A stretch of 63,227 bases of DNA, counting the filler, from Rhizaria sp. SCN 62-66 (lineage: Eukaryota), in the NCBI GenBank assembly GCA_001724265.1. It is 11 parts of 11 records of this genome, joined end to end, with 100 filler letters (N's around TTAATTAATTAA, not from the genome) between each part and the next. Parts side by side here need not be neighbours in the genome. Positions count along the whole stretch, not along the records: positions 36,275 to 41,797 come from MEDY01000699.1; 10 more parts are not named here. One strand, written 5' to 3'. Position numbers and translations under genes: made by a program. Numbering within the stretch: the first letter of the stretch is position 1; every line of letters begins with the position of its first letter. Below, piece after piece: positions 12,160 to 59,306 of the stretch. The notes under the pieces were generated by a model. That model saw only the letters and a list, made by a program, of their open reading frames with translations, had not been told where the DNA came from and ran no database searches.

Positions 12160-12232
12160 GTCTAGTTGGCTCAGTTGGTAGAGCGTGGGTCTCATAATCC
12201 CAAGGTCGCGGGTTCGATCCCCGCATTGGACA
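12160..12232 (+). tRNA. tRNA-Met (CAT), elongator type
   Basis: Cloverleaf: acceptor GTCTAGT/ATTGGAC, D-arm GCTC..GAGC, anticodon loop CTCATAA with U31-U39, T-arm GCGGG-TTCGATC-CCCGC. A T-run follows. Confidence 0.96.
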
Positions 12233-25264: not shown

Positions 25265-26539
25265 TTAGAGCTCCGTGCGGAGACGCTGAGTGACGGCAAT
25301 GGGCTGCGTGGTCGTGGTGGTGGCCTCGTCACGAGCACTGTCGTGCTCGTCGTCACGCTCATCGTGGTGGTCATCGTGCTCAGCAGTGTCGTCGTCTTCG
25401 TGGGTGTCCTCGTCGTGCTCGTCCTCAAAGTCGTCGTCGTCATCGTCGTGGTCGAAGGTCGAGTGAGTGCCGGCCTCGGACAGGAGCCCGTCGTGGCACA
25501 CGTAGTCGGCCTCGTTGAAGCACGCGTCACCGCAGAGACTCGGCGTGCTCACGCCGCACAGCACGCCCTGAGTGGGAGACGCGCACACGTGGGTGCCGGG
25601 GTTGTACAGGACGCCGCTGGAGCCGCACGCGCGGGTAAGAGTGCTGTCGCCGATGTTGGCGGAAGTGTCCTGAGCCTGAGTCGTGTCGCGCGGGGTGATC
25701 GTGCTCTCGCCGGTGGTGGCGGGAGTGTCCTGAGTCGTGTCGATAGGGTTGATTGTGTCGCCGGTGTTGTCAGTGTTAATAATGTCTCGATTGGCGTTGG
25801 AGGACGACTGACTCTGGCTCTGCTGCTGCTGCTGCTTCAGCTGAGTGCCCTTAAAGCTTGACTTGACGCCACCCTGAAGCTGCTGCCCCTTGAAGCCTGA
25901 CTTAACGCCACCCTGGAGCTGCTGCCCCTTGAAGCCTGACTTAACGCCACCCTGGAGCTGCTGCCCCTTGAAACTCGACTTGACACCGCCCTGAAGCTGC
26001 TGTCCCTTGAAGTTGCCGGACTTGACACCACTCTGGAGCTGCCCCTTGAAATTGCCGGACTTCACGCCGCCCTTGAGTTGCTGAGTCTTGAAGTTGGACT
26101 TAAGGCCACCCTGAAGCTGCTGGCCCTTGTAACCAGTGGACTTGACGCCGCCCTTTAAGCCGGACTTGATGCCGCCCTGGAGCTGCTGACCCTTGAAGTT
26201 GCCGAACTTGACACCGCCCTGAGGTTGCTGGCCCTTGTAGCCGGAGGACTTAACACCGCCCTGAAGCTGCTGTTGGCCCTTAAGACCAGTGGACTTGACA
26301 CCGCCCTGAAGTTGCTGGCCCTTGTAGCCGGAGGACTTGACACCGCCCTGAAGCTGCTGGCCCTTGTAGCCAGTAGACTTCACGCCGCCCTTCAGGCCAG
26401 ACTTAATGCCGCCCTGAAGCTGCTGCTGGCTCTTAAGCCCAGACTTTAAGCCGCCCTGAAGTTGCTGGTCAGACTTGATCTGAGCGACAGCGAGGACAGC
26501 GCAAACTGCCAGCAGCGCCGCGAGAAGAGTCAAACGCAT
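25265..26539 (-). CDS. Secretory-pathway protein: signal peptide, Q/G/K repeats, CBM52-like Cys domain, Asp/His-rich tract, C-terminal RTEL
   Basis: MRLTLLAALLAVCAVLAVA signal peptide. About 16 QLQGG(V/I/L)KS units. CG..YNP..HVC..LC..CGDACFN..YVCHDGLL. Ends RTEL-TAA. Confidence 0.88.
   Translation of the reverse strand: MRLTLLAALLAVCAVLAVAQIKSDQQLQGGLKSGLKSQQQLQGGIKSGLKGGVKSTGYKGQQLQGGVKSSGYKGQQLQGGVKSTGLKGQQQLQGGVKSSGYKGQQPQGGVKFGNFKGQQLQGGIKSGLKGGVKSTGYKGQQLQGGLKSNFKTQQLKGGVKSGNFKGQLQSGVKSGNFKGQQLQGGVKSSFKGQQLQGGVKSGFKGQQLQGGVKSGFKGQQLQGGVKSSFKGTQLKQQQQQSQSQSSSNANRDIINTDNTGDTINPIDTTQDTPATTGESTITPRDTTQAQDTSANIGDSTLTRACGSSGVLYNPGTHVCASPTQGVLCGVSTPSLCGDACFNEADYVCHDGLLSEAGTHSTFDHDDDDDDFEDEHDEDTHEDDDTAEHDDHHDERDDEHDSARDEATTTTTQPIAVTQRLRTEL
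25850..26475 (-). repeat. Coding tandem repeat, 39-45 nt units (QQLQGGVKSxxxKG)
   Basis: Recurrent gacttgacaccgccctgaagctgctg-like units. Confidence 0.9.
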
Positions 26540-27061
26540 GTTGATACTCTACGCACAAATCAAACAAAAACACAATAATAAAAATAGAAATGTAATGTTC
26601 AAGTTAGTTTATGGCTGCTTTGTGGTGTTTTAAGCTATCTTACTCTTATATTCGCGTCAATCATAGGTTTTAGTTTTCGCTTGTAGATTCGTCTTGTTCA
26701 TCAGATCAAAGTCCAGCGCATCAATGACTGTGAGCACTATTTGTTGAAAATTACTGAAACAAGGACACTTGTAGCTATAATGCGTGTTAAGCCACGATGT
26801 GACTTGAAACTATGCAGGACTCATAGGATTAATCGAGTTGTTTTTCTTTCTTAAACAATAATTGTGAGTGAAAATTTTGACAATCGCACGGACAACTTGA
26901 AAGAGCGAAGAACGGTATGCTATCATAGAGATGTCACAAATAATACAGATCTAAAGTGAGTAACTAAATTAACGTCTTTGTATCTAGATATTTCTGTTAA
27001 AAAAACAACAACAGATTGAGGAACTATATAAACATAAGAAAATTAAAGGCAACAAACCGGG

Positions 27062-29284
27062 TCAGTCTGCACCACCCCCACCATTGAAGGCTTCTGCAAG
27101 CGCCGCAGCCGCAGTGCACACAGCCTGTGCCAGGCTTTCCGCGACATCTGGCGCTGACCACAGCGCGCACGCCGCGGCAGCGCGCGCCAGCACAGCCGCT
27201 TGCGCACGCGACTGCGCCTGCAGCGGCAACTCCGCCTGCAGGTGCGACCGCGACGGCAACTCAGACACCGACTGAGACTGTGACTGGACAGCGTCATCGT
27301 TTCGCGTCAGTGTCAAAGCGGAGGATTCCATGGCTTGGGAGGCAAAGGCGGCGGCCAGCGGCCACGGCAGCGGCCGCAGCGCCAGCGCCAGCAGCAGCGC
27401 CTGTGTGCCCGTCTCCGCGTCCATAGCACCGCCGCCAGCAGTGCGCGCACTGCCAGCTTCTGACGCGGTTGCAGCAGCTGCTGCTGCGGCCGCTGCTGCT
27501 GCAACGGGCGCGGTGGCCTTGTCGACAGCAGCAGCGGCGGCGCGACGCAGCGCGTGCAGCGGCGGACACCGCGCCGCGGCGGGGGCCAGGGGCGCGGCAC
27601 GCGCGCGCAGCGGGGCCGGAAGCAGCAGTGCTGCCAGCTGCGCGCCCCACGAGCCGGACGACCGCGGCTCCGCGTCCGCAGCACCTGTTGCGCTGGGAGA
27701 CGCACAGATGTCGTTGCCGTCGTCGCTGTGGTCGTGATCACTAGCGCTACCACGATCGTCGTCATCGTCGTCATTGCCGTCATCGTAGTCGTCGCCGTGA
27801 TCGCCGCTGTATTGCCGGCGGCCCCACAGAGCGGCGGCGCTGTCGAGCAAACTCGCCACACCCGCCGACGTTGCTGCAGAGGCCGACGCAGAGGCCGAGG
27901 CCGACGCTGGCCCAAACACAGCTGAGAGCCCGCGTCCCCGGCCGGCGACCGCGGCGGCGGCGGCGGCGGCGGCAGCGGCGGCCTCGCGTCGCGCGCGTGC
28001 CAGCGCAACGGCCGCGGCGACGAGCGCCTCTGCGCCCGCGGCCTCAGCGGCAGCCTTGGCGGCGGGCACGGCGGCCGCGGCGAGCAGCAGCAGCAGCCGC
28101 GCGTGGGCGTAGAGCGGCAGAGCGACGGCGCCGCCGCTGCCGAGGGCCGGGTCCAGCCAGCGCCGCAGCAGCAGCAGCGCGGGCGCGGCCACGGCGTAGT
28201 ACCGCAGCAGGCGCAGCAGCGGCGGCAGAAGCAGCGCGCTCAGCGCCGCGCCTGCAGTGCTGCCTCCAGCTGCAGTCACTGCCGCGCTTCTGTCGCTCTC
28301 ACAGTGCTCTCTGACGTCTTCGGTGAAGGGTGCGGCAGATGAGTGCGTGTCCCCTGAAATCGCCGTTGCCGCCGCGGAGGCGTCGCGGAGGCGCAGGAGC
28401 AGCGACACAAGCGGCGGCAGCGGGACGGCGAGTGCGGCGACGGTACCGGCGGCGGTCAGGCCCGCGCCGCGGACCAGCACTGCGTACGCTGTGAGCGCCA
28501 GCGCCACGCGCACTGCGGGCGACGACGACGCGAGGAACGATTGCGACGCGGATCCGTTGCCCCCCCTGCCGGCAGCAGCCGCTTGTGGTGGTGTTGACAA
28601 TGGGAGAAGAGAGCGCAGGGCCGAGCCGGCGGCGGCGGCGGCGGCGCGCGCGGCAGTTGCGGCGGCATCCAACACAAGTGCCGCCACTGCGGGCGCGGGC
28701 GCAGGCGCGGGCGCTGCTGCGGGGGCATACGTTGGCGCAAAGGATGACAGCACGGCTGCATTTGAGCTCGAGCTGGAGCTAGCGGAGCTCGTGGAGCTGT
28801 GGTCGTGGCCACCGAGCCAGTGCCTGTCAGTAGCCAGCCCGTGCCAATCTGCAGCGGGCCAGTGCTGGTCAGCAGAGGCGGCGCGCATTTGCACTGATGA
28901 CAACGGCGACTGCGGCTGCGACAGCAGCGCGGAGCTGGCGTTGTCTCCCGCGTGGGCAAGCGCCGCGGCTGCGGGTGCAGCGGCCGGCGTAGACAGCGCT
29001 GCGGCTGTCGTGGTCGCGGACAACTGCGCAGAGTCAGGGTGGCGCGCGCGGTAGTTTGAGAGAAGGACGCGGTACATGGAGCGGCTGAGCAAGTCAAGCA
29101 GAGGCAGCGTGGGCACGGGCGGCGGCGCGGGGCCGCGCGGGGCAGCAGACGCGTGCGGCGCCGCGTAGACAATGGGCGCTGGCGAGGGTGTAGGCGCGGG
29201 CGCGGGCGCGGGCGCAACAGCAGATGAGGGCCGTGGGGGTGGGATGGCCACCACGTCCGGGGGCAGACGCGGCTGCTGGGACAT
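27062..29284 (-). CDS. Ala-rich hypothetical protein (740 aa) with hydrophobic segments, ends TGA
   Basis: Single long ORF with coding-like GC content, flanked by AT-rich DNA on both sides. Confidence 0.7.
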   Translation of the reverse strand: MSQQPRLPPDVVAIPPPRPSSAVAPAPAPAPTPSPAPIVYAAPHASAAPRGPAPPPVPTLPLLDLLSRSMYRVLLSNYRARHPDSAQLSATTTAAALSTPAAAPAAAALAHAGDNASSALLSQPQSPLSSVQMRAASADQHWPAADWHGLATDRHWLGGHDHSSTSSASSSSSSNAAVLSSFAPTYAPAAAPAPAPAPAVAALVLDAAATAARAAAAAAGSALRSLLPLSTPPQAAAAGRGGNGSASQSFLASSSPAVRVALALTAYAVLVRGAGLTAAGTVAALAVPLPPLVSLLLRLRDASAAATAISGDTHSSAAPFTEDVREHCESDRSAAVTAAGGSTAGAALSALLLPPLLRLLRYYAVAAPALLLLRRWLDPALGSGGAVALPLYAHARLLLLLAAAAVPAAKAAAEAAGAEALVAAAVALARARREAAAAAAAAAAAVAGRGRGLSAVFGPASASASASASAATSAGVASLLDSAAALWGRRQYSGDHGDDYDDGNDDDDDDRGSASDHDHSDDGNDICASPSATGAADAEPRSSGSWGAQLAALLLPAPLRARAAPLAPAAARCPPLHALRRAAAAAVDKATAPVAAAAAAAAAAATASEAGSARTAGGGAMDAETGTQALLLALALRPLPWPLAAAFASQAMESSALTLTRNDDAVQSQSQSVSELPSRSHLQAELPLQAQSRAQAAVLARAAAACALWSAPDVAESLAQAVCTAAAALAEAFNGGGGAD

Positions 29285-29856
29285 GGCGGCTTAGAGTGGC
29301 GACTAAAGCGGACCCAATAGGTGAAAACAGCAAATACTGCGGCGCGATACAGTTATACAGATAGCACGATGAGAGGTAGGGTAGTGGCTGTGATGGCGAT
29401 CCAGCGTTGTGAAAAAGAAGCTTATGCAGTGGGAACTGACAAGCTTGGTCAGGCAACTCATAAAGCATACAAGACGGCAGATGTGGGGAGTATTATTAAC
29501 CGGGGTTAAATTACATGACATTTATATGCTGTGGCAGCAACAATAGCACGCGTTCACGGCTCTGGTAGTGCTGGATAGGAATGTCAGAAATTTGGGATGT
29601 CGGCAAGAACAAAGAACTGTATGAACGAAGTTCACACGGAGCGGTTCTCAAAATATCACACTATTTCCTGGATTTTTAGTCACCATCTTTAATCAGCTCA
29701 TATCACCTTAAAGGCATCGATATAGTAAATATTTGATTTGTGAAGCTATGTAATCGGCAATCTGGTTTTATTTTACTATATTACCTTTTGCTTATTTGTC
29801 AATCTCATCTCTGTAGAGGGCCGACTTACCCCGTTGTTAGCCCTGCTGCTTTGAGG

Positions 29857-30961: not shown

Positions 30962-31885
30962 TCACCGACGCAGGGGCAGCGCGCCAAGCCCGGCCGTGAG
31001 GCCGCTGACGCCGCTGACGCTGCTGTTGAGGCCCACCGTGCCGGCCGGCACGACGGTGCTGGCGCCCAGGCCCGCGAGAGTGCCTGACAGCGCACCGAGC
31101 CCTCCGGCAGACAGACCGCCCGCGGAGAGACCACCCGCTGAGAGACCGCCGCCCGTGGCCGAGAGCCCTACAGCAGACAGCCCTGCAGCCGCGGTAGAGA
31201 GGCCGCCGAAGCCGCCCACGCCCGCGCCTGTGCCGGCCACGGTGGTAGGGCTGGCGCTAAGGCCACCACCGAAGGCCCGCGGGCCGCCGGCACCGGTGCC
31301 GGCGCCGCCGTTGGCAGCGTTGCTGGTGAGCGAGAGCTGGTTGCCCGTCGCGGCGAAGCGCAGGGCACTGTTGTTGCCGCCAGCGGCGCCGAGACCGCTC
31401 GCGGGGCCGAGCCCATTCGAGCCGAGGCCGTTGAGGCCGTTGAGGCCGTTGGCGCTGAGGCCGGTGAAGCTGGGGCTGGGACGGGTAAATGAGGCCGCCG
31501 CGCCGCCGGTGCTGCCGATCGCGGTCCCGGAGGGCTTCACCAGGCCGGGGTAGCCGGAGACCGTGGTCGTGGCCATGGCGGCCCCCGCCCCCGCCCCCGC
31601 GCCGGCGCCTGCGCTGGCGCCTGTGCCGCTGTTGGAGACGCCCAGGCTGGTGACGGCGCTGGTCGGGGTGCTGGTAGTGCTGCTGTTGCTGCTGGGAATC
31701 GTCATCCCGCCCCCGCCGTTCATGCCGCCGCCGTTGGCAGTGCCGTTGCCGTTGCCGTTAGCGACGCCGCCATTGCCGTTGACGTTGACACTGTTGCCGT
31801 TGCCATTGTTGGAGGCAGCGAGGGACATGAGGGCCTGCAGCAGACTTGCGTTGCTGGCGGAGGAGTCGCCAGGCGCAACCATTTG

Positions 31886-31925
<40 letters not shown>

Positions 31926-34900
31926 TGCTGTTGCTGCTGTTGTTGCTGCTGGAGCAGTTGCTGCAGCTGTTGTTGCTGCTGCAACTGCTGCTGCTGCTGT
32001 TGCAGCTGGAACAGCGCCTGCAGCTGCAGCTGATGCTGCTGCTGTTGCTGCGCCTGCGCCTCCTTGGCGGCAACCGCGGCAACGGCGGCCGCAGCACTGG
32101 TGCTCGCGCCGTTGCCACCGACAGCGCCGTTCACAGCGTTGCCGCCGCCGCCGCCGCCATTGGCGTTGGCGTTGCCCGCGAGCAGAAGCGCGAGCACTGC
32201 GCGCGCGGCCTCGCCGTTGCCGCTGCCGCTGCCGCCGCCGCCGTCGGCGCCGGGGGCCGAGGAGGCGCTCGCGGCCAGCAGCGCCTGCAGCAGCTGCGGG
32301 GACACGCTGTTCGCGCCGCCGCCGTTGTTGTTCATAACTGCGGCAACCACACCGGTGTTGCCGGCAGCGCTGTTGGCCGCCGTGGCGTTGTTGGCCGCGG
32401 CCGCCGCGCTCGGGTGCAGGGGACTCATGCCGGCGCCGCTAGGGCCAGACTGGCGGCGCATCGCCATCAGCTGCAGCTGCGCCTGTGCCTGTGCCTGTGC
32501 CTGGGCTTGGGCCTGGGCTTGGGCTTGGGCTTGGGCGAAGGCCGCGAGCTGCTGCTGTTGCTGATGCTGCTGCAACACGAACATCAGCTGCTGCAGCTGT
32601 TGTTGTTGTTGCTGTTGCTGTTGCTGCTGCTGCTGGGCCAGAGCCAGCGCCTGCGCCTGCGCATGGGCCTGAGCCAGAGCCTGCTGCTGGGCCTGCTTGG
32701 CCTTGGCCTTGGCCGCGGCCTGCTGCTGCAGCGCCTTCTTCTGCTGCTTCTGCATGGCTGCGACGGCGGCGGCCTGCGCCTGCGCCTGCGAGTGGGCCGC
32801 CGCGGCCAGCGCGCGCGCGTGGGCCGCCTCGGCCTGCTTCAGCTCCATCTCCAGCTGCCGCTGCGCCAGCAGCTGGCTACGCGCGGCGTCGCCGGGCTGC
32901 TGTGCGATGTCGACCCCAGCCGCGGAGAGGGCGTCGAGCTGCTGCTGCTGCTGCTGCTGCTGGAGCTGCAACTGCTGGAGGTAATGCGAGTAGTAGTCCA
33001 CCTGCTGTTGCGCTGACAGGGCCGCCGCAGCTGCGGCACCGCCGTTGAGCGCGCCGCCGGCGGCGGCGGCGGCGGCAGCGTTGCCGTTGGCGGACAGGAG
33101 CGAGGGGGAAGCGCGGGCGCGGGCGCCCTTGCCCGCACTCGCGCCGCCGACCTGCGCACCCCCGTGTGTTACCCCATGTGTTCCGCCTTGTGTTCCGCCC
33201 GCGTGCGGCACCAGGTGCGAGCCGTGCGCGTGCGCGGCGACGCTATGCAGCGCCTTGGCCTTGACGGCCTGCGCCTGCGCCGCGAGGTGCTGCTGCCGCT
33301 CCCGGAGTGAGCGCGAGTCGAGGGCCGAGTGCGGCGCGAGGGCCGTCGCCACACCGAGGTGACCGTGGGCGTGACCGTGGGCGTGGGCGTGGCTGTGGCC
33401 GTGGGCAGCCACGTAGTCGCCCGCCTGGATGGTGCCGTCGGCTGAGCCGGTGGCGTCGGTGTGGCCAGCGCCGGCGCCGGCGCCGGCGGCGTCAGCGTCG
33501 TAGCTGCCGTCCCCGCCGCCGTTGCTGCCATCGCCCATACTGGCGGTGTGGCCGCTGCTGCCGGCGTATTGCTGCGCCACTGCGTCATACGCACGGCCAC
33601 CACCACCGTCCACCGCGCCCCCCACAGCGCCGTCGCCGCCGTCGCCGCCCTGGCCGCCCTGCGCGCCCTCCGCAGAGCGGCCGCGCTTGCGCGACTGCGT
33701 CTGCGTCTGCGTTTGAGATTGCGACAGAGCGTTGCTGTACGCGGCTGCGGCTGCGGCGGCCGCAGCGGCGTTGGCGTTGGCGGCGTTGGCGCGGAGGCCA
33801 GGGACCGGCAGACTCACAGCTCCGTTGGTGTCGTCGTAGCCGATGATGCCGCTGCCGTTGACGCTGCTGTCTTCGGGGGCCGCAACAAACACGTTCTGGG
33901 TGCTGAAGTAGCCAGAGCCACCGTCCGCGCCCCCGTTGCCAGAGCCAGAGCCAGAGCCAGCGTTGTTGTTGGCCAGGCGGGCGCGGCTGGCCGCACCAGT
34001 GCCCGTCCCAGTGCCCGTGCCAGCGCCAGCGCTCGCGGCACGGGCAGCGCCAGCAGCAGCAGCTCGGACGGCAGCGGCGGCGGCCCCCGCGGCAGCCTTG
34101 CCCCCGGCAGCGGCGGCGGCTCTGCTGGCCGGCCCCTGTCCGCCGGCTCTGCCGCTCGCATCCAGGACGGCGGCCGCGGTGGTGGGTGGGGCCGAGACGG
34201 GGAGGATGGGCAGGCTGCGCGCGGTGAGGTACTCGACAGCCTCGGCGTCGCTCGCGTCGACCGGGATCGTGTGCCGCCCGCAGTATACGTACGCGCCGTG
34301 GATCGGGACCTGCGCGCGCGCCGCAGGTCGCGGAAAAGAAGGGGGGGAAAAGAGGTACGGTCGGGCGGAGTGAGCGATGTTCAGGTAAAGTACGGTAGGA
34401 ATTTTACGCACAAAGAAACGGACATAGAGACATGCAAATGCAGTACAGTTGATAAATTACAGTAGAATATTGAAATGTGCATATTTTGGTTTAAATTGCG
34501 ATGCATATATTGATATTGCGCTTCGTTTTCGACGACCTACCTGGTGCGCCCTGTTGTAGGTGAGCGAGAGCTTGGTGCACGAGAGGAAGTGGTGTGAGCG
34601 CCGGTCGCACCGGAAGGCGACCGCGCTGCGCAGCGCGTTGGCCGTGGCGAGCAGCTCCTGCGTCGACGGCCGGCCCTGGCGGTCGTAGTGCTTGAGGTGC
34701 GCACGGCACACGGGCGTACCCGGCTGGCAGGGCGCCGTGTGGCACAGCTCGCCCAGGCGCTCGAACTTGCAGATCCAGATGCATGATAGCGGGAGCCCCG
34801 TGTTGGGGTCGAACGAGATGTAGTCTTCGATGCGGTCATCGAACGCCGTCGCGCCGCCGCCACCGCCGCTGCTACCACTGACAGCGGTTGACGCTCCAGG

Positions 34901-35596
34901 AGCAGCAGCGGCAGCAGCCGAGGATGAGGAGGGGTCTTGGCTGTAGGCGTAGCCGCTGCCGCTCCTGGTGGGGGCGGAGGCGACCGGGAGCGGGGCCGCT
35001 GCGCCGGCGCTGCTCGCGGCCGCGTTGGCGCTGCCGGCGGTCGCATTGGCGCCAGAGAGCGCGCTGTAGCTGCTGGCGTCGCCCGCGGCGCTATAGCCGT
35101 AGCCACTGCCCTCGGTCTTGACAGGCGCGGTCGTCGCGGTGGGCAGGAGCGTGGACGCGGCGGCGGCGGGACCCGGGGCGGGGCTCTTGAGGGCCTCGAG
35201 CCCCGCCGCGGCGCCCGGCTCGGTCTTAAGCTCGGCGGACTTGCCGGCGCCTGGCTCGGTCTTGACTGAACCTACGGTTCTGCTGCCTTCGCCGAGGTTG
35301 TCTGCGGCGACCGGCTGGGCGGATCCAGAAACCTAGTGTCCTCGGCTGCGACTGGGGGTCGCCGCAGTTGCTGTAGCAGAAGCGCTGGCGCCAGCAGTGC
35401 TCAGAGCGGCTGCGGCGTCTGCGGATGCGGGTGTTGCAGAGTCAGTGCCCGACGGGGAGCCGTCAGCGCTCACCGGAGGACTCGGGCCGTCACTACAGGA
35501 GACGCTCGCGCTTGAAACCAAAGCAGCTGTCGTAACAACATTGGTCGTAGTGCTGCTAGAAGCCGCGTAGCGGGCGGCTGCGACGGTAGGATCCAT
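30962..35596 (-). CDS. PolyQ/Ala-rich putative transcriptional regulator with tandem C3H Zn-finger-like motifs. Exons 35596-34541 and 34309-30962, in-frame TAG at 35333-35335, ends TGA
   Basis: ORFs 35333..35596 and 34457..34711 share a frame. Three (V/L)KTE SUMO-type motifs. CKFERLGELCHTAPCQPGTPVCRAH and C..C..YCGRH motifs. Phase-0 GTAGGT...GCAG intron. RKRGR NLS-like motif and long polyQ tracts. Confidence 0.78.
31883..32050 (-). repeat. CAG/CAA polyglutamine tract
   Basis: (ctg/ttg)n on the plus strand. Confidence 0.95.
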
Positions 35597-36274
35597 CGTA
35601 ATCTATATGTGAAGACGGAACCAGTGTCCAAACTGCACAGACGGCGTTGCGGGATCAGGCAAGAGGGAGAAGAGGCGACAACAGAACGAGGCGTTGGAAG
35701 GAAAAGAAGTCGTGAGGAAGGAAAAGCGAGGGGACAAGATTACCACAATGCGCGCGCAGAGAGTAAGAGGAAAGCATACTTATCAAATTGCTCCTCTGCA
35801 TATTTTAAGACCATCGCACCGGAGTACGACAGACGAGGAGAGTCGCAAAAAGTTCAGAGTTGACTGGCAACGCCCAGCTCGTCATTCGCAACAGAAAGTT
35901 TTATATGCGGCCCGCGTCACCCCAGATCAGACCCCCGTTCTGGTATCTAATTCCTCGCAAACAGGTCGACAGTAAAGCTCCGCATTGTTCCGATCAGGGC
36001 CAACACACTGCGCGTAATTTCCCAAATGTGGTCCACTTTGTGTTCCGCCTGTACACCGCCGACTCTGTCCAGGCTTAACACGGGGGTCGCGAATTGGGCC
36101 GTTTGCCTCTCCCACCCCACATGTTTGTGATGTTGAGGCACCCCCCATCCCCAATAAACATCCCTAGATTACCANNNNNNNNNNNNNNNNNNNNNNNNNN
36201 NNNNNNNNNNNNNNNNNNTTAATTAATTAANNNNNNNNNNNNNNNNNNNNNNNNNNNNNNNNNNNNNNNNNNNN

Positions 36275-38698
36275 TCCTGTGGTGATCTCAGGTGAGGTGA
36301 GCTTGAGTGCGTCCTTGCTGATCACGTACGGGTCGTTGGTGGACACACGTGAAGCTTCGTTAGCAAACACAACACGCATATCGGAAATAGCGCAGGAGAT
36401 CATTGATTCAATAGCCGTGTACTGTGTGACAGTGATTGTAATCTTATTGCTTGTCGCGGCAATCGTGCATTCGCCGCTTGTGCGTGTGGCTGATGAAAAG
36501 TCAAATGACGTCAGAGCCGTGGTTAGAACAAGCTGTGAGCCAACGGAAAGTATTTCGCCAGCTTCAATGTTAAATGTGCCGGCGAACGTAGAGGCAACCT
36601 GCGTAAAGTTACCTGATACAGGTGTCAACACAAGAGAGCTTGGAGTGTAACTAAATGTCGTCGAGTGCAATTTAGCAACAATAGGCGCCTGCAACGATGT
36701 CGCCACCGTCACAGGGTTGCCCGTGGTAGCTTGTGAAGTCAGATGAACCATGAGACAATAACCTGGAATCGACGGCGTTGCAGTACCTAGCGGGAAAACT
36801 ACATTGGTAATGTTTAACTGGACCTTGCCTGAGCCAAGAGTGGCATTGGCGGAGCAGGAAAACACGAAACGCGTTGTGGCAGCCGAAACCGTTGAGCAGC
36901 CCGAGTTGGTGATTGCAGAGCTCGTCGAGAAGAGTACGGGCGAGCTGTCGCAGAAGCGAATCGTGCCCCGCACGCCGTCAACGCTGCTAAAAAGAGACTC
37001 AACGCCAGCACCATACCAAGTAGTAAATGCGGTAGTGAATGTATCATTTGGGCCCGATGTGCCGGTACGTTGAAGACCCTTAACAGTAAACTCCAGCTGT
37101 GCAGGCGTGTAGATGCGCGTGTTACCAGCGTAGTTACCACATCCGTAGAAATGCCACATTTGATTGCTATATGCAGTATAGTAAGCCGCTGGCCTCGCAG
37201 ACACTGACAATGTTGTTGCAGCATAAGTAGCCAATGTGTTAGCTGCCGTCGCAAGAAAGCGCAGGGTAATGGAGTTTGCGGCGTTATGATTGAAAATATG
37301 GTAGCCAAGATTTACGCGGAACACGTACTCCGTGTTAGATCGTTTCTCTCGCAATGAAATTGAATAAATAGTTGCTTCGTTTGCCTCAGTAAAAGGAGCA
37401 GAGAATGGGATTAAGGAATGACCAACAGCAATATAACTCAAATCCGTCACAATGGCTCCAAGGGCTGAGGTGATATCAATCTCAATATCAACAATAGAAG
37501 CACTGAATAGAGAGCCATAACTAGAATCAAAACCTGCTTTTGTTGCAGCAAGTGTGCGTGCGATAAAATTGCGGAAGCTCAACTCTAGAATGAAAGATGT
37601 CTCTGTTCCTGATCGCGGTGACGCGAGGCTACTCAGAGAAACACTGAGCATGTAGGAATCAAACTGCGTCAAGTCACTTGGGGTCATCAGGTATCCTCCT
37701 ATGGAGTACAATGGCACGGTTGATGAGCCATGATGGGCGACGGTTCGACCGTCGGAGTTACAACCAGGCTTGCGCAGCGTCGCTGACTTCGACGAGCCAG
37801 GAAGCATTGAGATCCACATTTTGTCCGTGTAAGACAGTGTTGAGGGGCATGATTGGATCTGAATCCCTGTAAAAATGTCGTAACACTCAGAACTGTCACA
37901 CTCCTGCTCCTTATACAGCTACGCACCCTGGCAGGGGGAATCTATATAACCAGTTAGAGGTTCAGGAAAACTTAAAACATCTGGACCGAAGTACACCAAA
38001 AAGTACGTACACCCGGTACATGCCAACGATATTTGATTTTCTGCGGTATAATAGAAAACATCTTCAATCGTTGTCTTGCCAGCTGCCATGTACTCCCTCG
38101 AAACGAGAACGCGCACGCCCGTGACATAGGCCCCTTGCATTGCTTGAGAACTAAAGCTTTGGAACTGTTTCTGATGTTGATGCTATTGCCTTTGCAGTGC
38201 TGTAGAAGTATATCCCAACTCTGTGGCGGTGCGACTGCTGCGACTTTTGACACCTCCCCTGGCACGCAACTGGTTTCGGCCGGCACGCTTTGAGTGCGAG
38301 GAGGCGGCGTGCTGAGCACGCTGAACGATCGCTTGCTCAGGAATATCAAGATGCCCACCTGGTTTATAGTTTGACAACATGCTGTCAAACGATTCATCCG
38401 TTGCATATGCAAGTCGACGCTGCAGGTTTGGCGGCAAGTGCGCCGGGTTCTCGTAAAGAATTTCGCGCAATGTTAAGTTGCTCGTGAGCCTATCTACGAA
38501 ACGCATGTATGCCTCAGCGCGCTGCGCCGAGTCAATCCGACTCTCCACAGGTCGCGGAATGTACGCAGCAAGAGGTGCGCTTTGTAAGTCACGAGGTCTA
38601 CCACTACTGCGAGCGTTCGGTTGCGAGTCCACATAGTCAAATCTTGTTGGGAAGAAGGCGGCAACCCCACAGAAAAGGAGACCTAGAGCGAACAACAT
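36275..38698 (-). CDS. Large secreted or surface protein, 3' partial, read through two in-frame TAG (38183-38185, 37919-37921)
   Basis: Three consecutive ORFs in one frame. Signal peptide MLFALGLLFCGVAA. Junctions TALQRQ*HQHQKQFQ and SPCQGA*LYKEQECDSSEC. Ser/Thr-rich beta modules with Cys pairs. Confidence 0.85.
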
Positions 38699-39683
38699 GC
38701 GCTCAGGGCGCCAGGGCGCACGCACATGATGTTCCAGGGGCTGTCAAGTAAATCTAGGAAGATAACTGTTATCAAAAGAATGCCAATGAGAACGGCTTGA
38801 GTGTTGGCTTGGGCTAAATGTGCCATGTCAGAGGCGAAATATTGGTTCGAGGAGGGCGGTGGGGCGGTTGAGGGCGGTGGGGGCGAACGTGAAAAGCAAA
38901 CAACATATTTGAGGAGATAAAAGATAAAAACAGGTGATGTGAGATGGCAAAATACTTTAAAACATGGGGGAAATATAGATAAACATCGTAAAACACTTTG
39001 AAGAAGATCTAAAAGTACGCCTATGCTGGCAAAATAGTGGACTTAGGCTGGCTCCAGCCACGGTGAAGGACGCAGTATCAAAAAACAAGCACTGTTCAAT
39101 AAGCCTTTAGCCAATTGCAACAAAAAAAAAATATCAAAATAACGTAATAAAATAAAGGCGCGTTATGCCTATTTGATCTACAAATAGGCATGTACTGATC
39201 TCTAAAAACGAATCTCTTCACAATACTAAGGAGCAAGGCAAGAATTTGAGTGCACTGCTGAATGAAATGACCGTGACGTGAGCAAGGCGAGGAGCGCCCA
39301 CCATCAGGGGAAAAGCGCCAAAAATCCTGGTTCGTACAAAAACACAAACACAAAAGGAAGTTCTCAGAAGTCAAAGAACAACAATTATTAATGGTTTTCA
39401 AACATTTCTTGAAACAAACCTGTATAAAGTAGAAACAGAGACGAAACTTGAAGAGAACAAAACAAAGTTGAGAACTTGGTGAACAACTTGAACAGTTAGT
39501 GTACCTACTGAAGTCCAACCTCGCGGAGTAATTGTGTCATGCGAGGTGCCGGTAAGGACTTTCAGTTCGGCTTATCATCCACTTCAACATAATGTACTCA
39601 CTTTGGCTCACAGTAAGAAGCGATGTCCTTTCACGTCCCGAACGCGAACACAAGCTCTATCACGCCCCTGCCTGCCGGTTTCC

Positions 39684-40830
39684 ATGGCTTTGGTCACCGT
39701 CATCACCATCGCCGCCACCTGCACCGCAAGCGTCCCTTCGGTGGGTTCCCTCACGGCGCCTCTCGCCCCAGCGGAGGACTCTGACCGCGACGCGCCGCGC
39801 TGCAAGCGCCGCCGCCACATGATGCGCGCTGCAGACCCGTGTCGCCGCGCTCGAAGCCGCGCTCGCGCGGTCACCCGCTCGCGCAGTCACGCTGCTATTG
39901 CCTTTGCTGCTGCCCAGAGCGCGCCTGCTAAGGCTTCCGACTCTGACCGCGAGGGGCAAGCCCGAGCGCGGCTGCCGTCGTTGCTGTTACGGTGGCCGTC
40001 ACCACCGCCGCCATGGGGGCTTCGAAGACGGCAACTCAGCCAGCGAGAGTGAGGGCTGCGGTGACAAGCGCCCCCGCTGCTGGCTCCGCTCCTACGGTCC
40101 CGGCTTTGGCGCCGGCGGTCCATGCTCTGGCTTCAACGCGCACGTTGTGGGCTCCTTCGGCGCCGTCTTTGGCCCCCACAGCCCCCACGGCCCCCGCGAC
40201 TTCCACAGTCCCCGCGACTTCTACGGCCCCCACGGCCCCCACAGCCCTTATGGCCACGGCCCCCGCTTGACTGAGGCGTCGACCCACGGTCCCTTCGCCC
40301 ACGGCTCCCGCGGCCCTCATCCACGTGAGCAGTGGATCGCGCGCGCTCTCGGCCGCACGCTGCTCTCCCTTCAGCGCACTGCTGCCGACAGCTCCGCCGA
40401 CAACGCCCCGAGCGCGACCGCGCCCGCCGTCGCTGTGGCCACCGTGCGCAAGGCGGTAAGCACGTCCGCTGCCGACTCCGCGCCCGGCGAGCGCCTGCTG
40501 ACGGCCTTCCGCGCCTCAAGGCCTCCAACGCGCCTGCCACTATTGCCGCCGCTGCCGCCCTGCGCGCGCAGCTCCGCGAGCGCTGCGATGGCGAGGGCCG
40601 GCACCACGGCTTCGGCCGCCACAGCCGCGGCGGCTGACTGCGCCGCGCCGCCATCGCGCCGGCGGGCGGCCAAGAGCAAGACAAGCGCGCGCGACGACGA
40701 TGAGGAAGAAGAGGAAGAAGAGGATGGTGTTCTTCCTGCGCCCGCGGCCGCAGCCAAAGTCGCGCGTGCTGCTGAGCCAGAGACTCTGTCGGACGCGACG
40801 AAGGCCGCGAAGGAGGCTCTCGCGCAGTGG
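39684..40830 (+). pseudogene. Frameshifted GC-rich gene remnant with GPH/SPH repeats and an acidic tract
   Basis: Coding-like sequence switches frame repeatedly (ORFs 39534, 39898, 40332). Contains GPHSPHGPRDFHSPRDFYGPHGPHSPYGHGP. Confidence 0.45.
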
Positions 40831-41294
40831 TGAAGAAGGCCATCGACGCTGGGCTTAAGCACTATGAGCGCCAAACAGTCATGGACACCGTGTACAAAAA
40901 GCTCACCACTGCATTTTCGAACTATAACAAGACGGAATGCATGAACCCTCCCTCCAACGTGATCGTTCAGGTGAATAGCAGCGCCATGTCGACCGGCGAG
41001 ACCTTCACTGAGCACGTGCAGCTCCTGCGCGACACAACGCTTGTGGGTCGCTACAAGAACTGCACCATAATGCTTATCTGCGACTCTTCTCGTAGCCATA
41101 TGATAGCGTCGTTCCGCAAGTGGTGTTATCACAACGATGTGACGCTACTTTCCGTCCCTGCCCACGGGACGTCCCTGCTCCAGCCACTCGACATCACCGT
41201 CATCAAGTCATATCGCGCTCGGCTGCGCCAATATGACATTCTCTGCGCACTTGCGGGCTGCCTAAAGGATGTAAGCGGAGTCGACGTTCTGTAG
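40827..41294 (+). mobile_element. Degenerate DDE_1 (pogo/Tigger/Fot1-like) transposase fragment
   Basis: IMLICDSSRSH...LLSVPAHGTSLLQPLDITVIKSYR matches the family D..H..P.H.T..LQPLD motif. Truncated. Confidence 0.8.
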
Positions 41295-41897: not shown

Positions 41898-43299
41898 GGA
41901 CCCGCTCGGCGGCCACCTCGGCGGCGACAAGGTCTACAGCCGCCTGAGCCGCCGCTTCTTCTGGGAGGGCATGCACCGCGACACGCATGCGTATGTCAAG
42001 ACGTGTATGGTGTGTCAGCAGCGCAAGTCGCCGCGTTTGCCCGGCCTCGGCTCGCTGCAGCCGATCGTGGTCTCTGAGCCGGGCCACACCGTCGCGCTCG
42101 ACTTTTGCGGCCCCTTCCCGGCCACGGCGCGCGGGAACGCCTACGTGCTGGTCGTGACGGACCACTTTACCAAGCACGTCGAGGCCTTCGCCACGCCCGA
42201 TCAGACCAAGGAGACTGTCGCGACCATTCTGGTCGACGAGTACTTTTGCCGCTATGGCGCGCCGACGCGCCTGCTGTCCGACCGCGGCGCCACTTTTCTC
42301 TCTGACGTCGTGCGCGCGGCGACGGACGCCTTTGCTGTCAAGAAGACCAACACGTCGCCTTACCACCCGCAGACGGACGGCTTGACCGAGCGGTTCAACG
42401 CGACTATGGCCAACATGCTCGCGTCCTTTGCCGCGCAGGACGACTGGGACCTCTATTTGCGCAAGGTGGTGTTTGCCTACAACACGGCCGAGCAGGCGTC
42501 GGTCGGCGAGACGCCTTTCTATCTGACTTTTGGCCGCGACGCGCGCTTCCCGTCGGATGCAACGCTGCAAGCGGCCGGCGCGGCTCCCACGCGCGGCGCT
42601 TTCACCGACGCGGCCGCCTATCGCGCTTTTCTCTCTACGAGTCTACACGCCGCACGCGCGGCCGCCAAGAGGGCCAACGACAAGCAGCACGAGCGGCAGC
42701 GCGCCGAATACAACGCGCGCCACCGCGACGTGCAGTTCGAGCCAGGGCAGCTGGTGTGGCTGTACTCGGCCGCCGTGTCGAAGAAGGCGCGCAAGCTGGA
42801 GCTTCCATGGACAGGCCCTTTCCGTGTCATCGAGCGCGCGTCGCCTGTCACTTATCGGCTTGAGCGCGATGGGCGCGCACTCAAGCAGCTCATTCACGTC
42901 GCGCGCCTCAAGGAGTGCCATTCGCGCGACGATCCTCCGCGCGCGCCGCGCACGGCCGCCATCCCTGCCGACGACACCTTCGACCCCGACATTGATGGCC
43001 TCGGCGATGCGCCGCCCGCCGCCCCCGCTACGGCCGCCGCTGTTCCCGACCACCCTGTGACACCGGGGCCGCTCGACGGCACTACTGACGTGTTCGCCGT
43101 CGAGCGCATCCTGCGCGTTGAAAAGCGCGGCCGGCGGAAGTACTATCAGGTCAAGTGGGCCGGCTACGATGAGCCGACGTGGGAGCCGACTGAGAACGTG
43201 CCGCGCTCCCTCATCCTCGCTTTCAGCCGCGGCGAGCGTTAGCGGCACGCGAGGACGCGTGCATTTGTCTTGGAGGGGGGCAGTGTGACAGGGCTGTGA
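41898..43299 (+). mobile_element. Ty3/gypsy chromovirus pol 3' part: integrase, GPY/F, chromodomain. TAG at 43240-43242; next TGA at 43297-43299
   Basis: GGHLG..CMVC, LDFCGP, SDRG, GLTERFN, WTGPFRV, and chromodomain FAVERIL..YYQVKWAGYDEPTWEPTENV. Confidence 0.95.
43272..43280 (+). promoter_or_regulatory. Polypurine tract
   Basis: GGAGGGGGG three nt upstream of the LTR TG. Confidence 0.85.
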
Positions 43300-43569
43300 C
43301 GCGGGGTTTGCAGTTTGCACCGATTTGCATTGCACTGGCAATGCAAGTCAATCGGCGGCCTGCAACGACCGCCCAGACCTGTTCGTGCTACCGGGCCCGC
43401 GCCGGTCAACGCCTTCCCCTTTCCGCGTGCCTCTTCCTTTTCCTCTTACCACGTGCTTCTTCCTTTTCCTCTTTCCACGTGTGTCGTTCTAGTGTTTCTA
43501 TTGGCCCTTTCGGGCATGTATATAAAGGGCCATGCGGCCCGAATAAACTCGTCTTTCCCCAGTGTCACA
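43284..43569 (+). repeat. LTR (286 bp)
   Basis: Terminal inverted repeat TGTGACA...TGTCACA. TATATAAA at 43519 and AATAAA at 43542. Flanked by PPT and PBS. Confidence 0.9.
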
Positions 43570-43570
43570 T

Positions 43571-43588
43571 TGGCGTCGCCTGCAGGAT
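43571..43588 (+). promoter_or_regulatory. Primer-binding site, probably tRNA-Ser
   Basis: TGGCGTCGCCTGCAGGAT complements a tRNA 3' end ATCCTGC-AGGCGAC-G-CCA (G73 discriminator and CCTGC T-stem, as in tRNA-Ser). Confidence 0.7.
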
Positions 43589-43676
43589 CCACTCCATCAT
43601 AGTGGTGACTAGGTCGGGACGGTTGACAGGCGAAGACCTCGACTCGGACAGGCGCAGCCCCGAGGTCGACCGAGCG

Positions 43677-46600
43677 ATGGCAACTGCAGTGCGCCAAGTA
43701 CCGCATCTGCGCAAGTTTGCGGGCCTCCATGGGGAGAACCTGGAGGCGTGGCTTCGCGATTTTGACGATTGGTGGGCCGCCACCAGCACCGATGCCGAAC
43801 GCTCAGACGATGAAAGCAAGGGCCGGTGGCTACGCCTCCACCTCGACGAACCCGCGAGGTCGCTGGGCGATGACGAGACCAAGAAGGCGAGCGCGTGGGC
43901 GGCAGTGCTTCGCACGAACTTTTCGACGACGACGATGCGAGAGGCCGCTCGCGCGGAGCTAAAGAGCCGCAAGAAAGCGGCGGGCGAGAGCTATGAGGAT
44001 TTCGGACGCGCGCTGCGCATCCTTGCGCTTCGAGCAGACCCCGGCATGCAGGAAGCCGAGGTCCTTCGCTTCTATTGGGACGGCATCGACACCCCCACTT
44101 TCATGGCGACGGCGGTGGCGCACGAGGACTGCAAAACGCTGCAACAGGCTGTGTCCCTCTGCCTGCGTGTTAACATGCGCTCTCGCGCAACCGCACCAGT
44201 CGCGACGGTCGCCGCAGCACCGTCCGAGCCTGCCGACACCGCCTCGATCGTCGCCGCCGTCCTCCAGCGCTTTGGCTTTTCACCAACCGGCCGTGCCAGC
44301 GAGCGTGCCGCGCGTCGCCAGAACCGGCCCTTCAACGGCAAGTGTCACGCGTGCGGCCAAGTCGGCCACATGGCGCGAGATTGTCCGCACGCCGCAAAGA
44401 GCACTCCCTCTGTCACTGCCAACAAATACAACAGGAACCGTTTGCCGTATCACAGGGAGAATAGGGAGGGTGTCCAACAAGAAGCGGAAGTGTTCTTTCT
44501 CAACAACGTTGCCAGTGTGGGCCATGCCGCCACCGGTGCCACCCCGACGCCCTTGCCCTGGCTGGCGCTATCCGTGCGCGCCGGCGGCACGCCCTTTGTG
44601 CCCGCAGTGGCGCTCGTAGACACGGGCGCCATGGTGTCCTGCGTCGCAGCGTCCTTCGCGACGGCGGCGGGGTGGCGCGCGACGCGACCGACCGCCGTGT
44701 CGCTGACGTCGGCCGCGCAGGCCCCGATCAGCGTGCTAGGTGAGCAAGACCTGACGCTCAAGGTGCCGGGACTTTCGAGCTGGAAGCATCCTTTCCTCGT
44801 CGTCGATGGGCTGCTGTGTGACGTGCTGATCGGCACTGACCTGCTGCTCAAGTGCGGCGCGATCGTTGATCTGCGAGGCCGCGAGTTTCGTTTCGGCCAG
44901 ACCGCGCTCTCCTTTGCCGCGCCGTCAGTGGGCGCGCCGCGGGAGTTGAACGCGTTGAAGGCGCAGGAGGACCCATCCACGACATCGCCTGCACGGCCGA
45001 GACAAGCGGCGCAGCGGAAGGCGCCGGTCATCGCGCCTGAAGACCTCATCAGCGACGAGGAGCTCACGCGCCGGCTTTTGAGCGGCGAAACGCCGCACGT
45101 GCTGGACGGCTCCGACAACGACGCGCTCGACCTTAGCTCCAAACTCGACCCGATCACGCGACCCGTGACGACGCAGGAGCTGATCGCCGCCGCGCGAGAC
45201 GCATCCGACGGCGACATCGTCGAGCCGTTGCAGTCGCTTTTGTCCGCGAGCGCGGACGTGTTCTCTTCCAACCCCAAGAGCCCTGGCGCCACGACCGCGG
45301 TCACGCACCGCATTCGTCTGCGCGACCCGACGCGCGCGCCAGTACGGGTGCCCGTGCGGCGCATGTCGCCAGACAAGGCCGCGGAGGTCGACCGGCAGGT
45401 GGAAGAGATGTTGGCGCACGGCATCATCCGCGAGAGCGAGTCGGAATGGGCCTCGGGCGTCGTGCTGGCGCGGAAGAGCGACGGCAGCCAGCGTTTCTGC
45501 GTCGACTACCGCCAACTCAACGACCGCTGTGAGCCGGACGGCTACCCGCTGCCGCTGATCGAGGACATTCTCGACGCGCTGTGCGGCGCCACGGTCTTTT
45601 CGACGCTGGATCTCGCGTCGGGCTACTGGCAGATCCCGTTGGAGCCCGCGTCAATTTCGCTGTCGGCGTTTGTCACGGCGTCTGGGCTGTACGAGTTTGT
45701 GGTCATGCCTTTTGGCCTGTGCAATGCGCCGGCCACATTTCAGCGCCTCATGAATGAGGTGCTCCGTGGGCTGCCGTTCTGTCGCGTGTACCTGGACGAC
45801 ATCATCGTCTTTTCGCGCGACGCGGCAGAACACGTGAGGCACCTCGAGGCCGTTTTCGAGCGGCTGCGCGGCGCAGCGCTGCACCTCAAGCTCAGCAAGT
45901 GTGCCTTCGGCCGCTCGTCCCTCAAGTACCTCGGCCATATGGTGTCGCGCGACGGCATCAAGCCACTCGATGACAAGGTCGCCGCCGTCCGAGACCGCGC
46001 GCCGCCCGCCGACGTGAAAGAATTGCAGTCTTTCTTGGGCCTGGCCGGCTATTATCGGCGTTTTGTCCCGCGCTACGCGCACATTGCGGAGCCGTTGTTG
46101 GCGTTGACGCGGAGTGACGCGCCGTTCGTGTGGAGCGAGGCATGCCAAGAAGCCTTTGCTGCCCTCAAGATGCGACTGACAGAACAGCCCGTGCTCGCCT
46201 TTCCCGACTTTTCGCGCCCGTTTGTCCTCATCACGGACGCGTCGTCGGTGGCCCTCGGCGCGGTGCTGGCGCAGCACGATGCGGCTGGTGTGGAGCATCC
46301 CGTGGCGTACGCGAGCAAGACGCTCAACGCGGCCGAGCGCAACTACTCGGCGACGGAGCGCGAGTGTCTCGCCGTGGTGTGGGCCGTCGGCCGGTTCGAG
46401 CTGTATCTCGCCGCGCGGCCATTCAAGGTGATCACGGACCACGAGGCGCTTCGCTGGCTGCTGTCTATCAAGAGCCCCGCGCACCGCCTCTATCGCTGGA
46501 CGCTCGCGCTCATGCCTTTCAAGATCGAGCTCGAGTACCGCCCCGGCGCGCGCAACGGCAATGCGGACGCGCTGTCGCGGCCGCCGATGGGCGCGTTGGC

Positions 46601-46959
46601 GGCGGTCACCCGCAGCGCCGCGCGCACTGCGAGCGCCGCGCCCTCTCAGCCCGCGCGATCAGCTGCCCCGCCTGTACTGCCAGTCGACGTGGCGCCGGCT
46701 GTGCCCGAGACGCAAGCGCGCGCCGACGCGTTTCCGACGGACATTGCCGCCGCCCAGCGCGCCGATGAGCGCCTGCGCCCCCTGATTGCGTACTTTGAGG
46801 CGGGCACTCTGCCGACCGCGCCCGGCGAAGCGCGCAGACTGGTCGAGAAGGCGGCCAAGTATGCGCTGCAGCGCGGCTGTCTCGTCTTTTTGCCGAACGG
46901 GCCGCGCCTTGTGCTGCCGCCGCCGCTGCAACGCTGGGCGCTGGAGCGCCATCACGATG
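43677..46959 (+). mobile_element. Ty3/gypsy single-ORF gag-pol (Gag, CCHC, PR, RT, RH, start of integrase)
   Basis: CHACGQVGHMARDC, ALVDTGA, RFCVDYR, MPFGLCNAPATFQR, YLDD, TDAS..ERECLA..TDH..ADALSR, ERHHD at the contig end. Confidence 0.97.
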
Positions 46960-58941: not shown

Positions 58942-59306
58942 GTTCGTTGGCCTGCAGAGGATAGTGGATATCAAGACAAAGGAAGAGTGAAATCAGTAAG
59001 TAAAATAACGCCGTAATAGAAGTATGTAGTTCGTAGCTGGTGGTGGCATTCTATAGCTACTTGATGTGTCCCTGTCGCGAACGCGCTCTTAAAAGATTCG
59101 GTGCCATCGGTCAACAAGAAAACGGTTTTTTCTCCCGACCATTGGGAAGCCGTTTCTGACCACCTTAGAAATATGGTTCTCGGCATCAAGAATCCGTTTC
59201 TTAGAATCAAGCCTTTCTTAAATTGTAGTTTTTTTAGTTTTTCACCTAATATTTTCACCATTTTCTTGATCATGTTGTTCTTGTTCTTGTATTCGCAGCG
59301 CTCGTT

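Follow-up and report, generated by a model that had tools for sequence, protein, structure and literature searches.

Nuclear genetic codes that split UAG from UAA are rare; two surveys report them only from Iotanema, a single rhizarian, and a small number of ciliates (PMC5304391, PMC11687900). UAG alone is reported as a sense codon in Iotanema spirale, where it specifies glutamine (Gln), and in the rhizarian exLh, where it specifies leucine (Leu) (PMC5304391); in phyllopharyngean ciliates, UAG is reported as reassigned to Leu or Gln, and suppressor tRNA(CUA) genes were found (PMC11687900). Among phages, crAss-like and other members recode TAG to Gln under genetic code 15 (PMC9523058), and in Fusarium and Neurospora, premature UAG codons are repaired by adenosine-to-inosine (A-to-I) editing (PMC11156358, PMC10776026). 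Here we analyze a 63,227-base stretch of the assembly of Rhizaria sp. SCN 62-66 (GenBank assembly: GCA_001724265.1), hereafter the window, in which a predicted surface-protein gene on the minus strand is interrupted by two in-frame TAG codons. We put the probability at roughly 0.65 that UAG is a sense codon in this organism, probably for Gln and possibly for glutamate (Glu), with UAA and UGA kept as stops.

The locus resembles the codes of Iotanema and exLh in having in-frame UAG within coding sequence and UAA and UGA as apparent terminators, and it resembles that of Iotanema in its likely residue, Gln (PMC5304391). However, the Iotanema and exLh codes, as described in that source, rest on transcriptome-wide codon statistics (PMC5304391), whereas the evidence presented here comes from three genes and one paralog family. 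In contrast to these two cases, the window is GC-rich, ranging from 47% to 78% across its contigs, and rich in Copia, Gypsy, and long interspersed nuclear element (LINE) sequences; unlike in exLh, Leu is unlikely here because the TAG columns are mostly polar. As in the phyllopharyngeans, UAG and UAA would differ in meaning, UAA would stay a stop, and the pattern was found in environmental assemblies (PMC11687900). As in phages with code 15, TAG, here probably read as Gln, breaks otherwise intact genes; however, the phage system is described as a strategy with phage-borne suppressor tRNAs (PMC9523058), whereas the window contains eukaryotic retrotransposons, a likely intron, and a low density of genes.

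A reading frame interrupted only by TAG codons

The window consists of 11 concatenated contigs of ~5–6.5 kb each, and all positions are given in window numbering. The interrupted gene lies on the 5.5-kb contig at 36275–41797. On the minus strand of this contig, three open reading frames (ORFs; 38698–38186, 38182–37922, and 37918–36275) lie in the same frame, and nothing but two stop codons, each of them TAG, stands between them; this bears out the arrangement described in an initial annotation of this DNA. With both TAGs read through, 817 codons starting at 38725 contain no other stop before the contig ends at 36275; the whole proposed reading frame (36275–38698, minus strand) extends from an ATG at 38698 to the contig end, and its 3′ end is missing.

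The domains follow in the order signal-peptide-like start, helical N-domain, Gln-rich linker, and beta-rich body. The first segment (38186–38698, minus strand; 171 codons) comprises the leader and N-domain and is kept in the metagenomic paralog L002 and in the database proteins P0005, P0007, P0011, P0015, and P0017. It is followed by the first TAG (TAG1; 38183–38185, minus strand), which lies inside the Gln-rich linker between ...TALQRQ and HQHQKQFQSFSSQ. The second segment (37922–38182, minus strand; 87 codons) contains the end of the linker and the first beta-strands of the body, and the second TAG (TAG2; 37919–37921, minus strand) lies between conserved cysteine positions, preceded by ...SPCQGA and followed by LYKEQECD. 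The third segment (36275–37918, minus strand; 548 codons) is the beta-sandwich body, rich in Ser and Thr, which the contig end truncates; beyond this point, relatives extend for at least 366 residues (P0010) and up to ~1400 more (P0014). At ~50% GC, chance alone would not be expected to leave 186 and 87 codons open upstream of the body, and homology shows both stretches to be coding.

The TAG codons themselves are real. Contigs without a single difference span both TAGs in X2 (record 18, 37739–38225) and X4 (record 24, 37772–38225), and a further such contig spans TAG2 in X1 (record 5, 37739–38170); X1, X2, and X4 represent three studies dated 2015 to 2025, although one such sample may be the source of the window. 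A JGI contig (L001) is 100% identical to the window over 1980 nt (37772–39751) and carries the same TAGs. Because exact contigs from three studies and L001 carry them, the TAGs are not assembly errors. More broadly, almost the same DNA is present in metagenomes from bioreactors, wastewater, and activated sludge (four runs from three studies, with 73–90% of sampled words).

Paralogs and residues at the TAG columns

The gene is a member of a rapidly evolving family of paralogs. A single near-length homolog was identified (P0002), which is 81% identical to the window protein and aligns without gaps across TAG2, and an exhaustive search identified 17 more distant relatives at E ≤ 0.001. L002 has 73% protein identity and 84% DNA identity to the window over 323 codons; beginning at an ATG and leader of its own, it stays in a single frame across both columns at which the window has TAG. 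A pattern scan for DNA of the family identified two loci in metagenome contigs (L001 and L002) among 441 pattern matches; no further paralog DNA was present among the 34 pattern matches in genome contigs or the 12 in viral contigs.

All paralog alignments are gap-free at both TAGs, with conserved residues immediately flanking them, and no splice joint was seen at TAG1 or TAG2 in any sequencing run aligned. The sites are coding rather than intronic: introns at the TAGs are excluded because paralogs align across both sites without gaps, in agreement with the initial annotation, which saw no splice signals around either site. P0011 (492 aa) and P0013 (438 aa) are single unbroken ORFs that run from leader through N-domain and Gln-rich linker into the body; because they are unbroken over the same parts, these parts constitute one protein, and the proposal that the signal peptide belongs with the extracellular-type body holds.

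At the TAG1 column, L002 has CAG. At the TAG2 column, L002 has AAA, and the relatives have K (P0002), Y (P0003), A (P0011), and S (P0013). L002 carries an in-frame TAG of its own, at which the window has CAG (Gln; 38270–38272, minus strand); P0005, which is 69% identical to L002, ends at this same column, and more distant relatives have L, M, and L there. All three family stops seen as DNA are therefore TAG, two of them in columns with a TAG/CAG exchange between paralogs and the third paired with AAA. Two further ends are shared among diverged members. P0013 and P0008/P0016 (60% identical) end after KRSNT, and the next column is Glu (GAG in the window) in the window, P0002, and P0003; P0011 and P0018 (58% identical) end after SLR or SLK, and the next column is Glu or Gln elsewhere in the family. 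If these shared ends were mere contig ends, three exact coincidences would be needed, which appears unlikely.

The initial annotation regarded Gln as the natural residue at TAG1 and proposed looking for CAG or CAA at the TAG columns of paralogs. This check gave CAG in L002 at TAG1 and the reciprocal TAG/CAG pair at 38270–38272; at TAG2, in contrast, L002 has AAA, a Lys codon, and the proteins show K, Y, A, or S. Because TAG2 is not Gln in relatives and the other shared ends fall on Glu columns, Gln is likely and Glu possible. The two TAG/CAG pairs and the Gln-rich run favor Gln, the two shared-end columns with Glu or Gln favor Glu, and Leu, the exLh residue, matches only distant relatives at one column. 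If UAG is read at all, these columns would point to Gln with slightly better than even odds; Glu would be the less likely choice, and any other residue would be improbable.

Relative to L002, the ratio of nonsynonymous to synonymous substitution rates (dN/dS; Nei-Gojobori method, 323 codons) was 0.77 overall, 0.50 for codons 40–170, and 1.12 for codons 170–327. All four indels downstream of the ATG at 38698 are multiples of three; counting a lesion at the start codon (see below), four of five indels are in frame. A neutral simulation with the 153 observed substitutions expects 5.6 stops (2.3 TAG, 2.0 TAA, and 1.3 TGA). No TAA or TGA was seen where 3.3 were expected, and the simulated probability of no TAA or TGA is 0.03. 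To judge from these comparisons, this is a family that evolves fast, keeps its frame, and tolerates TAG alone.

Other genes with in-frame TAG codons

Two other genes in the window, each on a different contig, are also interrupted by TAG only. An ankyrin-repeat gene (6672–8291, minus strand) contains two in-frame TAGs (8006–8004 and 7835–7833). When the frame is read through, Pfam identifies Ank (E = 4.6e-9, residues 132–159) and Ank_2 (E = 8.1e-10), and the repeats cross the second TAG, at residue 153. This residue is the x of the LL-x-GAD position, at which solved ankyrin chains have K, N, E, Q, or D, so the position is compatible with Gln or Glu. The only match in an ortholog search was the same gene (P0024), and no relative supplies a residue at the TAG columns; P0024 is a database copy, 100% identical, that begins at the first Met after the TAG.

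The second gene is a frame of 2025 codons on a third contig (18633–24707, plus strand) with one in-frame TAG (19188–19190). GC content at the first, second, and third codon positions is 0.58, 0.45, and 0.69 upstream of this TAG and 0.64, 0.53, and 0.71 downstream; because the two patterns are alike, both sides look coding in the same frame. Together, the surface-protein gene, the ankyrin gene, and the 2025-codon frame contain five stops in ~3,400 codons, all of which are TAG and none of which is TAA or TGA.

As a control, we scanned the window with one stop type read as sense per pass, at GC <0.60, and with segments of at least 200 codons joined to segments of at least 50; a scan of single stop types cannot reveal pseudogenes with mixed stops. 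Reading TAG as sense gave two joins (the surface-protein and ankyrin genes), TAA gave none, and TGA gave four. Two of the four TGA joins are antisense to known ORFs, and all four hold three to eight TGAs.

Three other candidates for recoded stops were rejected. The join at 59250–62675, with one TAG, has a GC content of 0.71–0.77, at which an open frame by chance is possible. For TGA as sense, a join at 39156–41294 (712 codons, 11 TGAs) yields an Arg/Pro-rich nonsense translation that reflects composition. For TAA as sense, a join at 30965–35332 is better explained by an AT-rich, intron-like stretch that holds the in-frame TAA at 34459–34457.

With the exception of one transposon ORF (41899–43239), which terminates in TAG, the long ORFs with a visible end use the other two stop codons: TAA terminates 12823–18333, 60753–62672, and 25268–26548, and TGA terminates 30965–34456, 27065–29290, 9358–10677, and 52196–53344.

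Start codon, RNA, and encoded protein

The ATG at 38698 (38696–38698, minus strand) opens MLFALGLLFCGVAAFF, which is signal-peptide-like as judged by eye, and it is the only start that joins the hydrophobic leader to the body. The initial annotation took this codon as the signal-peptide start; DNA alignment with L002 instead places the usual start of the family at 38727–38725 (minus strand), which is out of frame with the body in the window copy. The alignment pairs GCA-TG-TTG in the window with GCA-TTG in L002; Ala-Leu-Leu would be the reading of a P0005-like sequence. The small indel lies among the first ~10 leader codons; it breaks the frame of the ancestral ATG, and it also creates the ATG at 38698. 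In the window copy, the paralog-type ATG opens only 14 codons and ends at a TAG at 38685–38683 (ORF 38683–38826). X1 and X4 also contain a variant contig in which one additional letter, behind 38696, restores the ancestral frame. Whether or not the organism reads TAG, the window copy may have become a pseudogene recently; alternatively, its product may be made with a shorter leader.

Some further features of this region were observed. If TAG is read, the frame from the paralog-type ATG would overlap the proposed frame for ~90 codons (38683–38727 region). The leader of L002 is strongly unlike that of the window, and the sequence upstream of the L002 gene (positions 1–765 of L002) can be aligned with the window upstream sequence only near the start codon.

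In a polyA RNA library, one contig of 154 nt matched the body exactly and another of 248 nt was paralog-like over the N-domain; both are weak evidence in favor of sense decoding. No Pfam families matched P0001, P0010, P0011, P0012, or P0014. AlphaFold predicted helices in the N-domain and beta-strands in the body, with a mean predicted local distance difference test score of 58 and a predicted template modeling (TM) score of 0.44; the best part of the model comprises residues 590–810. Foldseek matched it, with low TM-scores (0.09–0.26), to tandem immunoglobulin (Ig)-like domains from surface adhesins of bacteria and from integrin legs. This low-confidence model suggests no more than a loose resemblance to the tandem Ig-like domains of adhesins and a general picture of tandem beta-sandwiches. 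Relatives reach 1161–1551 aa, and, based on the leader, the richness in Ser/Thr, and these long relatives, the product is likely a large secreted or surface protein.

Other features of the window

The contigs of the window are joined by ten 100-base spacers, each of the form N44-TTAATTAATTAA-N44, and there is one additional gap of 31 Ns. ORFs that run across spacers are artefacts, and adjoining contigs need not adjoin in the genome. Eukaryote-looking content includes a Copia polyprotein, a chromodomain Gypsy, a LINE-type ORF with an endonuclease domain, and a pogo-like DDE_1 fragment; Sushi/TIG, B-box, and ankyrin proteins and one intron-like stretch were also present. In their sequence content, the contigs look eukaryotic. 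High GC and a heavy load of retrotransposons look unlike a ciliate macronuclear genome. The body ORF and P0012 fall in eukaryotic protein clusters, but the Perkinsozoa and Ciliophora labels of these clusters rest on 1–10 members and do not settle the lineage.

On the contig of the interrupted gene, the pogo-like DDE_1 transposase fragment is located at 40776–41294 (plus strand; E = 2.3e-11). The GC-rich region at 39150–40800 is open in several frames and has a non-coding appearance. The chromodomain Gypsy (41898–46959, plus strand) is permuted, as an integrase and chromodomain ORF (41971–43242) precedes gag, protease, reverse transcriptase, and RNase H (43296 to the contig end); this order suggests tandem copies or a collapsed assembly. 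After the TAG of the integrase ORF, a TGA follows 18 codons later.

A poly-Gln/Ala-rich ORF (30965–35602, minus strand) has more than 1100 codons and is broken by an AT-rich stretch of ~70 codons. Upstream of this poly-Q gene, a TAG at 35335–35333 splits off an ATG-started ORF of 87 codons; this possible fourth case of an in-frame TAG is GC-rich and weak. At 25265–26539 (minus strand), an ORF has a leader, ~20 repeats of QQLQGGVKS type, a Cys-rich end, and a TAA terminator, and its Cys-rich end has a weak match to Carb_bind (E = 8e-4) below the Pfam cut-off. A 1167-codon ORF at 54558–58058 (plus strand) has four Sushi repeats and two TIG domains, gaps at both ends, and no in-frame TAG.

ARAGORN identified a tRNA-Met(CAT) at 12160–12232 (plus strand) and called a tRNA-Ser(GCT) at 31651–31738. 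A scan of the window with Rfam gathering thresholds returned one tRNA, the tRNA-Met(CAT); the tRNA-Ser(GCT) was not confirmed.

Discussion

We propose that the three ORFs between 38698 and 36275 are one gene in which UAG would be decoded as sense, presumably by a tRNA whose anticodon is CUA, together with a modified release factor. Insertion of an amino acid at UAG, the identity of that residue, and expression from the new ATG at 38698 are steps that we infer. A more specific version of this proposal, in which a GC-rich, transposon-bearing, non-ciliate wastewater eukaryote came independently to read UAG alone as Gln or Glu while UAA and UGA stayed stops, is tentative, and we consider its chances somewhat short of even. 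In a full-text literature search, we found no report of a UAG-only sense code in a wastewater eukaryote, a result that is no proof of absence.

A number of observations weigh against sense decoding of UAG. The TAG evidence comes from three genes on three short contigs, plus one TAG in L002, and the common origin of all window contigs from one organism is an assumption. The other long ORFs of the window contain no in-frame TAG in ~9,900 codons, which are mostly transposon or GC-rich sequence, and TAG terminates the Gypsy integrase ORF (41899–43239) directly behind the last domain. The window contains no eRF1 gene. No CUA-anticodon tRNA was identified by ARAGORN in the 63-kb window, L001, or L002, a negative that says little; in this the locus differs from the phyllopharyngeans, for which tRNA(CUA) genes are reported (PMC11687900). 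Among the four matching contigs of the polyA run X12, none crosses TAG1 or TAG2. The ends of P0005, P0008, P0011, P0013, P0016, and P0018 are known as protein, and some could be contig ends. Values of dN/dS of ~0.8–1.1 fit relaxed constraint and diversifying selection equally well. The out-of-frame ancestral ATG is one frameshift-type lesion in the window copy, and a transposon fragment adjoins the gene on its 5.5-kb contig.

The last three of these points would also be expected of a young pseudogene under the standard code, in which a start frameshift was joined by two nonsense changes (CAG to TAG and the second TAG), and the other TAG-bearing genes would likewise be dead. CAG to TAG is the commonest nonsense path, TAG in two of two nonsense hits is not improbable (the simulated share of TAG is ~0.41), and many members of the family are present in databases as fragments. 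Protist variant surface protein families are rich in pseudogenes, with mixed stop types and frameshifts; the family described here is similarly multi-copy, fast-evolving, and probably secreted, lies in repeat-rich DNA, and has many interrupted members. In contrast to such pseudogenes, however, all of its stops seen as DNA are TAG and four of five indels are in frame. Neither TAA nor TGA occurs among the three family stops or among the five stops of the three window genes, the control scan gave no TAA-only joins, the indels other than that at the start are all in frame, and the 548-codon body is without a lesion. L002 has an intact start and frame and nevertheless contains one TAG, at a column common to a 69%-identical paralog, and neither of the two has any other stop or frameshift; two further ORF-end columns are shared among members only 58–60% identical. 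Based on this pattern, we consider decay of the gene under the standard code unlikely, although it retains a real share of the probability.

Leaky or programmed readthrough, or an ambiguous code, would have UAG still terminate many genes and be read by a near-cognate or suppressor tRNA at some sites. This would accommodate the integrase and chromodomain ORF that ends in TAG after its last domain, as well as the rarity of TAG, with five in the ~3,400 codons of three genes and none in other long ORFs. A C that follows TAG weakens termination, and C follows four of the five TAGs in the three genes, or four of seven when the TAG of L002 and the doubtful join at 60750 are included. However, the downstream contexts (CAT CAA, CTG TAT, CCA GAG, ACT GGT, CAT GCA, TTG CGC, and AGC GCG) have no common motif, and none is of the CAR-YYA type, which is a readthrough-type context. 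With at least two TAGs per gene, inefficient readthrough would yield very little full-length product, and the TAG columns are kept between diverged paralogs. Readthrough of this kind therefore seems quite improbable.

Restorative RNA editing, by which a TAG in DNA would be altered in the mRNA (e.g., A-to-I, UAG to UGG, as in filamentous ascomycetes), is very unlikely. In-frame stops that are TAG only are a hallmark of that system (PMC11156358, PMC10776026, PMC5496914), and Fusarium and Neurospora likewise have genes broken in DNA by in-frame TAG only; in those fungi, however, the codon becomes UGG and restores an ancestral Trp (PMC11156358, PMC10776026). Trp is absent from all three TAG columns here in all aligned members, which have Q, K, Y, A, or S at the window TAGs and Q, L, or M at that of L002. 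The window also encodes Sushi and B-box proteins, whose distribution, presumably, does not suggest an ascomycete.

Finally, the one likely intron elsewhere in the window (AT-rich, with the in-frame TAA at 34457–34459 of the poly-Q gene) would be a precedent for TAGs within short introns or for three independent genes, a reading that is barely credible given the ungapped paralogs, the one shared frame, the single ORFs of P0011 and P0013, and the lack of any joint in the aligned runs.

If the gene is a pseudogene, the locus is ordinary. If UAG is instead decoded as sense, standard gene callers would cut the proteins of this organism into pieces; in the databases searched, P0002, P0006, and P0024 are present as fragments, each beginning with the first Met downstream of a TAG. 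Each split between UAG and UAA is informative about the ways in which release factors and suppressor tRNAs can pull apart two codons whose meanings usually shift together. Sense decoding of UAG here would be a further independent break of that coupling, in a lineage with contigs of 60–95 kb in public metagenome assemblies, and it would provide a case in a common wastewater-reactor lineage that could be studied from existing metagenomes.

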